A stretch of 64,000 nucleotides of DNA from an uncultured Acidobacteriota bacterium (lineage in GTDB: Bacteria > Acidobacteriota > Thermoanaerobaculia > Multivoradales > UBA5704). Both the position numbers and the translations under genes were made by a program. Positions 33,501-38,367 of this stretch are shown piece after piece. The stretch spans positions 1,792,001 through 1,856,000 of the forward strand of contig CAVYRF010000001.1 in the NCBI GenBank assembly GCA_963770895.1. The letters run 5' to 3'. Within the stretch, counting starts at the first letter, position 1, and each line of letters begins with the position of its first letter. A model generated the notes under the pieces. That model saw only the letters and a list, made by a program, of their open reading frames with translations. It did no database searches and was not told the origin of the DNA.

Positions 33501-36500
33501 GCCGCCGGTGCGCGCGTGCCTGCTCTGGCTGGGGCGCGGCGCCACGCCGGTGGCGGCGCCCGCCCTGGCCGTGCCTGGCCCAGCGGCGGAGCCCGCGGAG
33601 CACTGGCTGCTGCTGGCGGTGCACCACATCGCCGCCGACGGCTGGTCGGTCGGCGTGCTGCTGGGCGAGCTGACCGAGCTGTACGGCGCCGCTCTGGCAC
33701 GGCGGCCCGCCCGGCTGCCGGAGCTGGCCGTCCAGTACGCCGACTTCGCCTGCTGGCAGCGCGACTGGTTGCGACCTGCCGGGAGTGCCGGCACGGCTGG
33801 TGTCGCCGGCCACGGCGACGTCCTGCGGCGGCAGCTGGACTACTGGCGGGAGCGGCTGCGCGGCGCGCCGCCGCTGACCTCGCCGCCCGCCGACCGGCCG
33901 CGTCCGCCGCTGCAGCGCTGGGCGGGGGAGGTGCGTCCGGTGCGGTTTGACGCGGCGCTCGCCGGCGAGCTGCGCGCCGCCGCGCGCGCGCAGAAGGTGA
34001 CGCTGTTCATGCTGCTCGCCGCGGCCCTGGACCTGGTGCTGCTGCGCCAGATCGGCCGGCCCGACCTGGTCCTGGGCACGCCGATCGCGGGCCGCACGCG
34101 GACCGAGGTGGAGGGATTGATCGGCCTGTTCCTCAACTCCCTGGCGCTGCGGGTGCAGCCGATCGCCGAGGAAGGGCTGTCGGCGCTGCTCGGCCAGGTG
34201 CGGGAGGTGACGCTGGGGGCCTACGCGCACCAGGAGCTGCCGTTCGAGCAGCTGGTCGAGGAGCTGGCGCCGGAGCGCAACCTGGCGCAGTCGCCGCTGT
34301 TCCAGGTGATGCTGGTGCTGCAGAACGCGCCTTGGCGGGAGCTGCGGCTGCCGGGAGTGGAGGCGGCGGCGGTGGCGATCGACAACCGCAGCGCCAAGGT
34401 GGATCTGACGCTGTCGCTGCACGAGGCCGCCAGCGGCGCGGACGGCGCGGGCGGTCTGGAAGGGGTCTGCCGTTACAACCGCGACCTCTTCGACGGCGCG
34501 ACGGTGGGGCGCCTGATGCAGCAGATGGAGATCCTGCTGCGGGCGGCGCTGGCCGATCCCGAGCGGCCGCTCGCCGCGTTGCCGCTGCTGAGCCGTGCCG
34601 AGCGGCGGCAGCTGCTCGACTGGAACGACACGGCGGTGCGCTGGGGTGAGGCGGAATGCCTGCACCAGCTGCTCGCGGCACAGGCGCGGCGGAGCCCGGA
34701 GGCGCCGGCGGTGGGCTTCGCGGGCGAGTGGCTGAGCTACGGGGAGCTCGACGCTCGGGCCAACGGCCTGGCCCATCGGCTGCGGACGGCGGGAGTGGGG
34801 CCGGAGGTGCTGGTGGGGCTGTACGTCGAGCGGTCGGCCGAAATGCTGGTGGGGGTGCTGGCGGTGCTCAAGGCGGGCGGCGCCTACCTGCCGCTGGATC
34901 CTTCGTATCCGCGCGAGCGGGTGGCATTCATGCTGGAGGAAGCCGCGGTGCCGGTGCTGCTGACGCAGCAGCGGCTGGTGGGCGGGCTCGCAGCGTCGGC
35001 CGCAACGGTGATCTGCCTGGATGCGCCGGGCGGCGCGGCGCCGCCGGCGGCCGAGGGTCCCGAGGTGGCGGTCGACCCGGACAACCTGGCGTACGTGATC
35101 TACACCTCGGGCTCGACCGGGCGGCCGAAAGGCGCGATGAACACCCACCGCGCCATCGTCAACCGGCTGTTGTGGATGCAGTCGGCGTTCGGCCTGGGGG
35201 CGTCGGATCGGGTGGTGCAGAAGACGCCGCTCTCCTTCGACGTCTCGGTGTGGGAGCTGTTCTGGCCGCTGCTGTGCGGTGCGGGGCTGGTGGTGGCGCG
35301 CCCCGGCGGTCACCAGGACACCGACTACCTGCTCGACCTGATCGCCCGCGAGCGGGTGACGACGGTGCACTTCGTGCCGTCGATGCTGCGGGCGCTGCTC
35401 GACGCGCCGGACCTCGCAGGCGCCGGCGGCCTGCGGCGGGTGGTGGCGAGCGGCGAGGCGCTGCCGGCCGAACTGCTGGCGCGCTACCAGGCGCGGCTGG
35501 CGGTGCCGCTCTACAACCTCTACGGTCCGACCGAGGCGGCGGTGGACGTCACCGCCTGGGAGTGCCTGCCGGCCGTGCAGCGCCCAGCGGCAGGGGCGCC
35601 GGACGCGGGTCGCGGGCGGGGCGGCGTGCCGATCGGCAGGCCGATCGCCAATACCACCATCCAGCTGCTGGATGCCGCGTTGCAGCCGGTGCCGGTGGGG
35701 GTGCCCGGCGAGCTCTACATCGGCGGCGTGCAGCCGGCCCGCGGCTACCTGCGGCGGCCTGCGCTGACGGCCGAGCGGTTCGTCCCCGATCCCGACAGCG
35801 GTGGGGGCCGGCTCTACCGGACGGGGGACGTAGCGCGGTACCTGCCGGACGGGGCGATCGACTTCCTGGGCCGCATCGACCACCAGGTCAAGATCCGCGG
35901 GTTCCGCATCGAGCTGGGCGAGATCGAGGCGCGGCTCGCCCGGCACCAGACGGTGGCCGCGGCGGTGGTGGTGGCGCGGGGCGCGGGCGCGGCGGCCCAG
36001 CTGGTGGCCTACGTGGTGCCGCGGCCGGGGTCGGCGGTGGAGCGCGGCGAGCTGCGGAGGTGGCTGGCGGCGAGCCTGCCCGAGCACATGCTGCCGGGCG
36101 CCTGGGTTGAGCTGCCGGCGCTGCCGCTGACGCCCAGCGGCAAGATCGATCGCCGGGCGCTGCCCGAGCCGGCGGCAAGCGGCGCGGCGCGGAGCGAGCT
36201 GGTGCTGCCGCGCACGCCGCTCGAGCGCTACCTGGCCGATCTCTGGCGCGACGCGCTGCCCGCGGGCAGCTTCGGCATCGAGGACAACTTCTTCGCCCTG
36301 GGGGGCAACTCGCTGAGCGGCGCGATGCTGATCTACCGCCTGCAGGAGAAGCTGGGCGAGATCGTGCACGTGGTGACGCTGTTCGACGCGCCGACGGTCG
36401 CCGGCCTGGCGGCGCACCTCGCCGCCGAGCACCCGCGGGCGGTGGCAAGGCTGTGGGGCGTCGACGGCGCCGCCGCGGCAAGCGAGCCGCAGGCCGCGGG

Positions 36501-38367
36501 CCGCGTCGATGGCGCCAAGGTCGCGCGCATGCGCCAGCTGCTGGGCGCTCGGGCGATGCAGCCGCCGGCAGCCCCGGACGTGGCCGGCGAGAGGAATCCG
36601 CCGGCGGTGTTCGTGCTGTCGCCGCCGCGGTCGGGCTCGACCCTGCTGCGGGTGATGCTGGCCGGCCACTCGCGGCTGTTCGCGCCGCCGGAGCTCGAGC
36701 TGCTGTCGTACCGGACGCTCGCCGAGCGGCGGCGGGCTCTTGCCGGCAGGGACGCCTTCCGCCGCGAAGGTGCGGTGCGGGCGCTGATGGAGATCCGCGG
36801 CTGCGCGGCGACCGAAGCCCTCGGCCTGATCGCCGGCTGCGAGGATGCCGGCTGCAGCACGCGCTGCTTCTACGGCCTGTTGCAGCGAGACCTCGGCGAG
36901 CGCCTGCTGGTGGACAAGACGCCGACCTACGCCTGGGACCGGCAGGCGCTGAGGCGGGCGGAAGAGGACTTCGCGGGTCCTCTCTACGTCCACCTGGTCC
37001 GCCACCCCTGCGCCGCCATCCGCTCCTTCGAAGAGGCGAAGCTGGACCAGATCTTCTTCGGCGCCGGCCATCCGTTCACGCGCCGGGAATTGGCGGAGCT
37101 ATCCTGGACGGTGGCGCACCAGAACATCCTCGCGCTGCGCGGCGAGGTGCCGGCGGAGCGCTGGCACACCGTCTCCTTCGAGCAGCTGGTGCGCGAACCG
37201 GGGCCGGTGCTGGCCGCGGTGTGCGCCTTCCTCGGCCTGGCCTACGAACCTGCCATGGCACGGCCTTACGAGTCGCTGCCGGGCAAGATGATCGACGGCA
37301 TCCACGCCCAGTCGCGGATGCTGGGCGACGTCAAGTTCCACTCTCACCGCCAGGTGGACGCCGGGGTGGGGGAGCGCTCGTGGGACCCGGCGGCGGAAGC
37401 GGCGCTCGGCGAGCCCACCAGGGAGACCGCGGCGGCGCTGGGCCTTGCGCTCGCCCGGCGGCAGGCGAGCGCGCCGCTGCCCGCGAACCTGGTGGGCTTG
37501 CAGCCGGGGGACGGCAGGCGCCCGCCGCTGGTGCTGATCCATCCGGTCTTCGGCGACGTCCAGATCTACCGCCACCTGGCGCGGGAGCTGGGGCCGGACC
37601 AGCCGGTCTACGGCTTCCAGACGCCGGCGCTGACCGGCGGCACGGTGCCGGAACGGCTCGAAGACATGGCCGCGCAGTATCGCGAAGCGTTGCTGACCTG
37701 GCGGCCCGCGGGTCCGTACCTGCTCGCGGGCAGCTCGATGGGTGGCTGCATCGCCTTCGAGATGGCGCGTCAGCTGACCGCTGGAGGCCAGGAGGTGGCG
37801 CTGCTCGCGCTGCTCGACAGCTGGGCCGGCGAGCCGCTGGCGCAGGCAGCGTCTGCCGCGGTGCCCGCGCTGCCCGCGCTGCCCGCGGTGGACGGGGGCG
37901 ACCCGCAAGCCGCCTTCCTGGCCTGGCTCACCGGTGGCGACGAGCGCGCCGTCGGCCGGGAGCTGGCGGGCCTCGACGGTGAAAGCCGCCTGGCGCTCGT
38001 CCTCGAGCGCGCTCGCCGCGCCGGCGGTCTCCCCGCGTCCTACGGCAGCGCCGACCTCCTGCGCCTGCTCGTGGCGATCGACGGCCAGCGCCGGGCGCTC
38101 CACCTCTACCAGCCGGGCCCCTACAGCGGCCGCGTGCTCTTCCTGCGTGCCGCGGAAGGCGTGGAGGGGCACCCGGAGGCGACCTGGAAAAAGCTGGCGC
38201 GCGGCGGCTTCGAGATCCACAGGGTCCCCGGCGGCCACCGCTCGATGTTGCTCCCGCCGCACGTGGCGGCCACCGGTCGCCTGCTGACCGCGGCCCTGCG
38301 CGCCTCGCGCCCACCGCTCGCGTCCGGGCGTCGCCTCGGGAGCGACAACGCGCACTTATCTTCTTGA
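15574..38367 (+). CDS. Non-ribosomal peptide synthetase: ACP-C-A(Ser)-T-C-A(Ser)-T-C-A(Val/Leu)-T-C-A(Ser)-T-C-A(X)-T-C-A(Ser)-T-sulfotransferase-TE
   Basis: LGLDSL ACP; six C motifs ([54 protein letters not shown]); six A domains (TSGS/YGPTE); five GGHSL and one GGNSL T domains; [11 protein letters not shown] sulfotransferase; GSSMG TE. Likely true start is ATG 15676 (SD ggagga). Confidence 0.97.

Follow-up and report, generated by a model that had tools for sequence, protein, structure and literature searches.

The window analysed here, a 64,000-nucleotide stretch of the genome of an uncultured soil acidobacterium, encodes in a single open reading frame (ORF; 15574-38367, forward strand) a nonribosomal peptide synthetase (NRPS) of 7597 amino acids whose last module carries a sulfotransferase (ST) domain between its carrier (T) domain and a C-terminal thioesterase (TE). 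From the ORF list, the translation, Pfam and a phmmer domain map, the domain order is T0-(C-A-T)x6-ST-TE, where C and A denote condensation and adenylation domains. The Condensation, AMP-binding and PP-binding families match along the whole ORF, and phmmer recovers (C-A-T)x6-ST-TE with the protein's own domains as queries. In the last 755 amino acids, Pfam finds PP-binding (43.5 bits), Sulfotransfer_3 (PF13469; 98.1 bits, cut-off 27) and Thioesterase (PF00975; 98.2 bits, cut-off 26.4), scores so far over the cut-offs that chance matches are ruled out. The initial annotation had placed an A(Ser)-T-ST-TE arrangement at 34660-38367, and this interval does cover A6-T6-ST-TE in both Pfam and the phmmer map; the strings it quoted (GGNSL in T6, 51 residues of protein sequence, and GSSMG around the TE serine) are all present in the translation. 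At the other end of the enzyme, residues 40-119 form a carrier domain, T0, that resembles the acyl carrier proteins (ACPs) of polyketide synthases (PKSs) in NCBIfam. The start codon is either GTG at 15574 or an ATG 34 codons further in, and the start is uncertain because of this second candidate and the low-complexity leader. The 39 residues preceding T0 (15574-15690) are rich in Ala, Pro and Ser.

We next predicted the substrate of the last module. Pocket codes were taken from a MAFFT alignment of A domains, and for A6 we picked nine pocket positions by what we take to be the PheA numbering. A search of the Protein Data Bank (PDB) with the whole of A6 is dominated by two-domain LgrA matches and uninformative on specificity, and we used the pocket stretch alone instead, for which the five best solved matches are Txo2, Txo1, FscH, 8xjz and EntF. 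In the printed alignment A6 is identical to EntF, which uses Ser, at eight of the nine pocket positions examined. A6 is therefore predicted to be Ser-type, as the initial annotation had it. The codes of A1, A2 and A4 (DVWH[ML]SLVE) are also Ser-like but have Glu at the last position, where A6 and EntF have Asp; their substrate may be Ser or a Ser-like residue, an assignment that is uncertain.

Table 1. Positions of the synthetase domains, of key residues and of two host synthetases that also contain an ST domain (window coordinates, except for the last two rows, which are in genome coordinates).
Feature	Position	Strand	Evidence and remarks
T0 carrier, ACP-like	15691-15930	+	Motif LGLDSLS, Ser79 at 15808-15810; fourth PP-binding stretch in the first half (Pfam)
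Module 1	C1 15973-17490, A1 17626-19200, T1 19264-19497	+	phmmer map; A1 code DVWHMSLVE
Module 2	C2 19534-20943, A2 20983-22674, T2 22714-22944	+	phmmer map; A2 code DVWHLSLVE
Module 3	C3 22975-24474, A3 24514-26025, T3 26056-26319	+	phmmer map; A3 code DALWLGGTF
Module 4	C4 26338-27771, A4 27811-29478, T4 29551-29760	+	phmmer map; A4 code DVWHMSLVE
Module 5	C5 29770-31221, A5 31264-32880, T5 32890-33126	+	phmmer map; A5 code DVVNVGRVS
C6	33133-34644	+	phmmer map
A6, predicted Ser-type adenylation	34684-36213	+	Code DVWHVSLVD
T6 carrier, GGNS subtype	36214-36453	+	Phosphopantetheine attachment residue Ser6913 at 36310-36312
Sulfotransferase (ST), CurM/Ols type	about 36544-37473	+	PF13469, 4gbm/4gox matches, AF2 model; narrower bounds 36568-37431
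PAPS loop PRSGST	36625-36642	+	String identical in window ST, CurM ST and Ols ST
Glu7040	36691-36693	+	Conserved Glu of PPEL
Glu7042	36697-36699	+	His in CurM at this position
Type I thioesterase (TE)	about 37525-38364	+	PF00975; triad in the next three rows
Ser7388	37735-37737	+	In GSSMGG
Asp7415	37816-37818	+	At +27 from Ser7388
His7555	38236-38238	+	
Host NRPS, 4079 amino acids (L007)	G000:C2:5430463-5442702	+	T0-C-A-T-ST-C-A-T-C-A-T; A code before ST DVWHMSLVD, Ser-like; no TE
Host NRPS, 11003 amino acids (C-terminal part L008)	G000:C2:237254-270265	-	...C-A-T-ST-C-A-T-TE; A code before ST DIWEITADD

A CurM/Ols-type sulfotransferase beside a canonical thioesterase

The ST domain matches the solved STs of CurM (4gbm, E = 2.4e-58) and Ols (4gox, E = 9.1e-53) over about 270 aligned residues, and PPEL and a further string of 15 residues are common to all three. 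We modeled the ST-TE part with AlphaFold (AF2) from a 14-sequence alignment (mean pLDDT 77.8). In structure comparison (VIA), the ST model aligns to 4gbm with Z 34.0 and a root-mean-square deviation (rmsd) of 2.1 over 275 residues and to 4gox with Z 32.8 and rmsd 2.3 over 272 residues, with 36-37% identity in the structural alignments. By sequence and fold, the domain belongs to the CurM/Ols-type family, in the Sulfotransfer_3 clade of Pfam, which agrees with the kinship named in the initial annotation. In NCBIfam we found no model for this ST, the sole ST-like match being NoeE at 22 bits, far under its cut-off. The loop for the sulfonate donor 3'-phosphoadenosine 5'-phosphosulfate (PAPS) is intact. 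The PPEL motif reads PPELELL in the window enzyme and PPELHLL in CurM and Ols, so that Glu7042 stands where these have His; a further sequence feature of the domain spans 19 residues. Glu7040 of PPEL would serve as the catalytic base.

Conservation indicates a domain under selection. Across 123 related ST domains the PAPS loop and the PPEL Glu are kept, and five motifs are conserved, including a stretch of 29 residues and MLGDVKFH. The ratio of nonsynonymous to synonymous substitution rates (dN/dS) against two orthologues is 0.28 and 0.30 for the ST, compared with 0.34 and 0.32 for A6, 0.30 and 0.33 for the TE, and 0.14 and 0.04 for T6. The ST is under purifying selection, with a constraint the same as that on the core domains; the Glu found family-wide at position 7042, the conserved PAPS loop with four other motifs, and the dN/dS values all indicate this.

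The TE has the canonical triad of Ser, Asp and His (Table 1). Its best solved sequence matches are 7crn, an epimerizing and cyclizing NRPS TE (E = 2.1e-19), and 4zxh, from AB3403 (E = 1.5e-17), and the same two entries align with the TE model (VIA; 4zxh Z 29.8, rmsd 3.2, 262 residues; 7crn Z 27.0). Further relatives in the sequence and structure searches (Foldseek, VIA) are EntF, fatty acid synthase (FAS), Pks13, Vlm2 and NocB. Among 53 PDB sequence matches at E <= 10 there is no chain named as a CurM, SulM or ObiF1 thioesterase, on the assumption that the searched copy holds the CurM TE entry. The structure searches returned NRPS, PKS and FAS TEs and no CurM, SulM or ObiF1 TE among the 43 ranks and 50 entries shown, which does not exclude families that are not listed there. 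The window TE is a canonical NRPS type I thioesterase. It shares its triad with 4zxh, 7crn and EntF, although no solved enzyme of this kind accepts a possibly sulfated last residue. In a TE tree, the TEs that come after an ST form no clade of their own: four TEs directly after T, among them that of a second NRPS in the window, are interspersed among 91 that follow an ST.

Sulfotransferases as a regular part of NRPS modules

Using the ST domain as query, we searched proteins of 526-2000 amino acids, of which 8000 were scored and 1011 matched at E <= 1e-10. Nearly all of the 120 top-scoring proteins are NRPS fragments and come from metagenome-assembled genomes (MAGs) of Thermoanaerobaculia, Pyrinomonadaceae, Blastocatellia and Acidobacteriota, with one from Chloroflexi; the top match is 95% identical and labelled Thermoanaerobaculia. 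Together with three proteins of the host genome they contain 124 ST domains, which are followed by a TE (59), a C domain (49) or the protein end (16). An exhaustive search of cluster representatives gave 3855 matches at E <= 0.001, 1578 at 1e-10 and 1097 at 1e-30, and 126 of 128 newly listed representatives have a T, A, C or TE domain beside the ST (ST alone in 2). In species-representative genomes we confirmed at least 613 ST loci. The 79 loci that we retained are all from MAGs, of Thermoanaerobaculia and relatives, Holophagales, Acidobacteriota, Pyrinomonadaceae, Blastocatellia and four Chloroflexota, and they include orthologues of A6-T6-ST-TE at 88-90% (four) and 64% (one) identity. In this group, found mostly in uncultured Acidobacteriota and in a few Chloroflexota, the ST recurs as a standard component of NRPS modules of the C-A-T-ST type, both elongating and terminating. 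Module counts are based on the 168 ST domains whose preceding A domain could be read: 73 of them lead into a C domain, 68 into a TE and 2 into a T domain, and 25 stand at the protein end.

The residues that these modules are predicted to load bear on the substrate of the ST. We compared 309 distinct A-domain pocket codes, 168 from A domains before T-ST and 141 from others. The ST modules have codes that are Thr-like (39), Ser-like (30, and 2 more ending in Glu), of the form DG..-GE.. (19), Tyr-like (15), 2,4-diaminobutyrate (Dab)-like (9), homoserine (Hse)-like (3) or other (51), and the A domains without an ST have 12 Thr-like, 7 (and 3) Ser-like and 3 Tyr-like codes. Thr-, Ser- and Tyr-like codes taken together account for 84 of 168 ST modules versus 22 of 141 others (odds ratio 5.4; Fisher p = 1e-10, a value that overstates independence as the sequences are related). 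ST modules, as judged by these codes, are enriched for side chains able to accept sulfate. When the A-code class is mapped onto a tree of the 168 STs, 42 changes are counted (mean 102 and minimum 92 in 500 shuffles of the labels), and for the class of the following domain 47 (shuffled mean 72, minimum 63); the ST therefore goes more closely with the residue of its own module than with the domain that comes after it.

The neighbors of the ST differ in how far they are specialized. Most T domains before an ST have GG[DNST]S at the carrier motif (215 of 228, with GGHS in 8), whereas other T domains mostly have GGHS (106 of 141, with GG[DNST]S in 34), and by this motif T domains before an ST appear to be a carrier subtype of their own. 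In this they resemble the special T domains that precede epimerization domains. C domains after an ST have the ordinary HHxxxDG motif in 31 of 32 cases. In a tree of 80 C domains, built without LCL, DCL or dehydrating references, they group in part, with other C domains mixed in and no cleanly separate clade.

Several arrangements among the relatives depart from C-A-T-ST followed by C or TE. The unusual ones (P0128, P0144; P0006, P0032, P0059, P0130; P0003, P0122-P0127) include T-ST-T-ST tandems. Four relatives have, after the ST, a C domain and then, 85-140 amino acids further on, a TE, with Ser codes where readable, and several relatives carry two ST-bearing modules. A further 19 relatives of about 1700 amino acids (P0036, P0046, P0053, P0058, P0064, P0076 and 13 more) consist of a single C-A-T-ST-TE module; they share the pocket code DG[LF][FY].GE[IV][WY], the TE always comes after the ST, and the named sources are Pyrinomonadaceae or Acidobacteriota.

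Proposed fate of the sulfate

We propose, with confidence somewhat above an even balance, that the ST serves the last NRPS module as an in-line tailoring domain and would sulfonate Ser6 at the expense of PAPS before conventional release by the TE, and that the product is an O-sulfated acyl-hexapeptide. In this scheme, an acyl starter is presumably put in trans on the ACP-like T0, and the six modules would build acyl-X1-X2-Val(like)-X4-X5-Ser, with Ser-like codes for X1, X2 and X4. The ST would move the sulfonate from PAPS to the side-chain hydroxyl of Ser6 on the GGNS-type T6, which at that point would carry either Ser6 alone or the complete hexapeptidyl chain. The ordinary Ser-Asp-His TE would then free the chain by hydrolysis or macrocyclization, so that the O-sulfated acyl-hexapeptide could be linear or cyclic. 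As to the supply of PAPS, the host genome encodes an adenosine 5'-phosphosulfate (APS) kinase (200.5 bits). For the ST family as a whole, the chemistry is probably the making of sulfated peptides and not a new reaction of chain release. We favor retention of the sulfate because the same family also serves Tyr-, Dab- and Hse-like modules, where a beta-leaving group is impossible, and because of two leads in the literature: in the cyanopeptolin (oci) operon of Planktothrix, an ST lies in an NRPS assembly line and the sulfate is kept in the peptide (PMC2533009), and an ST without a TE is thought likely to yield sulfated metabolites (PMC11730487). Among the products listed in the initial annotation, an O-sulfated Ser-containing (lipo)peptide fits these observations; nothing specific supports its enamide, dehydroalanine or strained ring.

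A number of points weigh against this proposal. Its support is computational, so that sulfonation of a carrier-bound hydroxyl is a prediction, on which the place of the ST behind T6, the dedicated T subtype and the APS kinase bear indirectly. Both of the closest solved relatives, the STs of CurM and Ols, add a sulfate that serves as a leaving group and not as a final decoration, and since a beta-sulfate on a seryl thioester or ester is prone to elimination, the scheme has to assume retention. At the position of the PPELHLL His, 121 of 123 NRPS-embedded relatives have Glu, one has Gln and one has Asp. The 51 ST modules with other codes include some that look like codes for residues without a side-chain nucleophile (DAW.LGNVV, DILQCGMVW). 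The names of the Thr-, Tyr-, Dab- and Hse-like classes follow what we take to be the published signatures, and only Ser was compared with a solved enzyme. The clustering of STs by A code and the T subtype could in part reflect the inheritance of whole A-T-ST modules. Lastly, the ST could act on another hydroxyl of the chain, as A1, A2 and A4 are also Ser-like.

The foremost alternative, which we hold to be unlikely though it deserves serious attention, is that the sulfate departs. Here the T6-bound Ser would be O-sulfonated and the sulfate then eliminated, spontaneously or through the TE (or, in T-ST-C modules, the next C domain), to leave a C-terminal dehydroalanine or a ring formed by displacement. 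We keep elimination in play because sulfate is a leaving group for the nearest solved relatives, the STs of CurM and Ols (PMC6274090, PMC11730487), and because a beta-sulfated seryl thioester is elimination-prone. The 69 Thr- or Ser-like modules among the 168 would each place a beta-sulfate adjacent to an acidic alpha-proton, and in the TE tree the window TE groups with TEs that come after Ser- or Thr-type ST modules. However, 15 Tyr-like, 9 Dab-like and 3 Hse-like modules, in which beta-elimination is impossible, have an ST of the same family with the same motifs, the enzyme contains no additional elimination domain, and the C domains after an ST keep HHxxxDG and form no cleanly separate clade. 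Nor are NRPSs that form dehydroalanine or dehydrobutyrine known to need an ST to do so. Were the sulfate to leave, A-T-ST would be an NRPS logic for sulfate departure from Ser or Thr, a third route to dehydroalanine and dehydrobutyrine beside dehydrating C domains and the phosphorylation or glutamylation used in ribosomal peptides, and a new NRPS way to dehydroamino acids or enamides; for the window enzyme, release as a dehydroalanine or an N-vinyl amide by this logic is a possibility that we rate at the same modest level.

We consider it very improbable that the ST does not act on Ser6 at all, being instead a silent spacer or sulfonating the Ser-like residues 1, 2 or 4, the acyl starter, or a substrate in trans. 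The change of the CurM/Ols His to Glu would fit a silent domain, but the Glu is family-wide and the motif conservation and dN/dS values given above are those of a domain under constraint. Likewise, three other modules of the enzyme are Ser-like yet lack an ST, and some ST modules of relatives have codes without an evident nucleophile; against this, the ST tracks the A-domain code of its own module, and the T ahead of it is a dedicated subtype.

Very improbable, in our judgment, is a CurM-like release, in which the ST would sulfonate the beta-hydroxyl of the C-terminal Ser and the TE would couple hydrolysis to decarboxylation with loss of sulfate, giving an N-vinyl amide (enamide). The C-terminal order of carrier, ST and TE is that of CurM, Ols and HlaB (PMC6274090, PMC11730487), the ST is of the CurM/Ols type, and the Ser hydroxyl lies at the beta position relative to the thioester, matching the CurM substrate. 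Against this, the triad of the TE is the canonical Ser, Asp(+27) and His, its PDB matches are to NRPS, FAS and Pks13 TEs, down to 2e-19, with no chain named as a CurM thioesterase among the 53 at E <= 10, and TEs after an ST are interspersed with TEs directly after T, whereas the TE of the haliamide ST-TE is 37% identical to that of CurM (PMC6274090). Moreover, 11 of 15 Tyr-like modules end in ST-TE, where decarboxylative chemistry is impossible, and a C domain follows the ST as often as a TE does. We put the enamide well below elimination because the TE bears no sign of CurM lineage in these searches and the pairing of ST with TE is not obligatory. The initial annotation had raised a CurM-like release unit of ST and TE, and this idea finds no support given the canonical TE, the ST-C modules (73 of 168, and two in the host genome) and the occurrence of STs after Tyr- and Dab-like modules.

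Known systems, neighboring genes and host genome

Sulfotransferases are known from few assembly lines so far, namely a few PKSs (CurM, Ols, HlaB) and one cyanobacterial NRPS initiation module, and the NRPS-embedded group described here is much larger. With the CurM and Ols STs the window ST shares fold, family, and a place directly after the carrier, here also with a C-terminal TE, and it would share with them the chemistry of moving sulfonate onto a carrier-bound hydroxyl; with the Oci ST it would have in common that a sulfate stays on an NRPS product. It differs from them in that CurM, Ols and HlaB are PKSs while its host is an NRPS, and the predicted substrate is an amino-acid side chain, not a beta-hydroxyacyl group made by a ketoreductase; in addition, the TE is not detectably CurM-like by sequence, and in the window ST family, unlike the CurM/Ols unit, the next domain is as often C as TE. 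In the Oci product, we take the sulfate to be on the glyceric acid side chain. The Oci ST, compared here by its published description, lies in the initiation part with the glyceric-acid loading domain, whereas the window ST comes after the T of elongation and termination modules. As proposed for the window enzyme, the last NRPS residue in sulfazecin biosynthesis is sulfonated with PAPS while carrier-bound and before the TE acts (SulN/SulM; PMC11298585). SulN, however, is a separate protein that acts in trans on L-2,3-diaminopropionate (Dap) to give a sulfamate, and the SulM TE has a catalytic Cys in Gln-Cys-Asn with Asp at position II (same source), as opposed to a fused ST behind a Ser-type A code and a TE with Ser7388 and Asp at +27 in the window enzyme. 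In the PDB sequence search, 8w2d matched only the carrier part of the C-terminal query. We rejected monobactam formation of the SulN/SulM type, which goes with a Dap A domain and a Cys TE, as A6 is Ser-type and the TE nucleophile is Ser. Fusion to ordinary NRPS modules, the dedicated carrier subtype and the His-to-Glu change set the window ST apart from CurM/Ols, Oci and SulN alike.

A full-text literature search, which had most subscription journals outside its coverage so that a prior description is possible, found no paper on an NRPS A-T-ST module and no identical architecture with a known product. The term "sulfotransferase" has no occurrences in the searched text of a 2022 review of unusual NRPS domains (PMC8949500). 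One apparent lead on PAPS, PMC5061366, was discarded because "PAPS" there stands for p-aminophenylserine. If in-line sulfonation is correct, these bacteria would produce numerous nonribosomal peptides with sulfated side chains, of which very few are known so far. In genome mining, A-T-ST should then count as a module type that adds a predictable +80 Da, and ST modules could be recognized by the GG[DNST]S subtype of their carriers.

Outside the NRPS, the 64-kb window contains 43 flanking ORFs of at least 150 amino acids, among which we found no fatty-acyl ligase, sulfatase, PAPS enzyme or tailoring enzyme. The closest with a family match are DinB_2 and VTT ORFs upstream and a CHAT-domain ORF downstream. 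The second NRPS of the window (55150-60075, forward strand, 1641 amino acids) lies 17 kb downstream and has the order C-A-T-TE without an ST; a DUF1643 protein (59508-60707) comes after it. At 40001-42000 and 48001-54000, just past the NRPS, the G+C fraction is 0.58-0.65, compared with about 0.75 within the NRPS, and the low-G+C ORFs have no Pfam match except for an FkbM-type methyltransferase (48596-49411).

The host genome comprises 8.16 Mb in three contigs, with 71% G+C. Searching it with PF13469, we identified two further giant NRPSs with an internal ST between T and the next C (Table 1), of which the 4079-amino-acid enzyme opens with T0-C, as the window enzyme does. The genome also encodes a stand-alone protein of 672 amino acids (G000:C2:2212427-2214445, forward strand; L009) in which Sulfotransfer_3 (95.9 bits) is joined to a C-terminal SCP2 sterol/lipid-transfer domain (47.9 bits).

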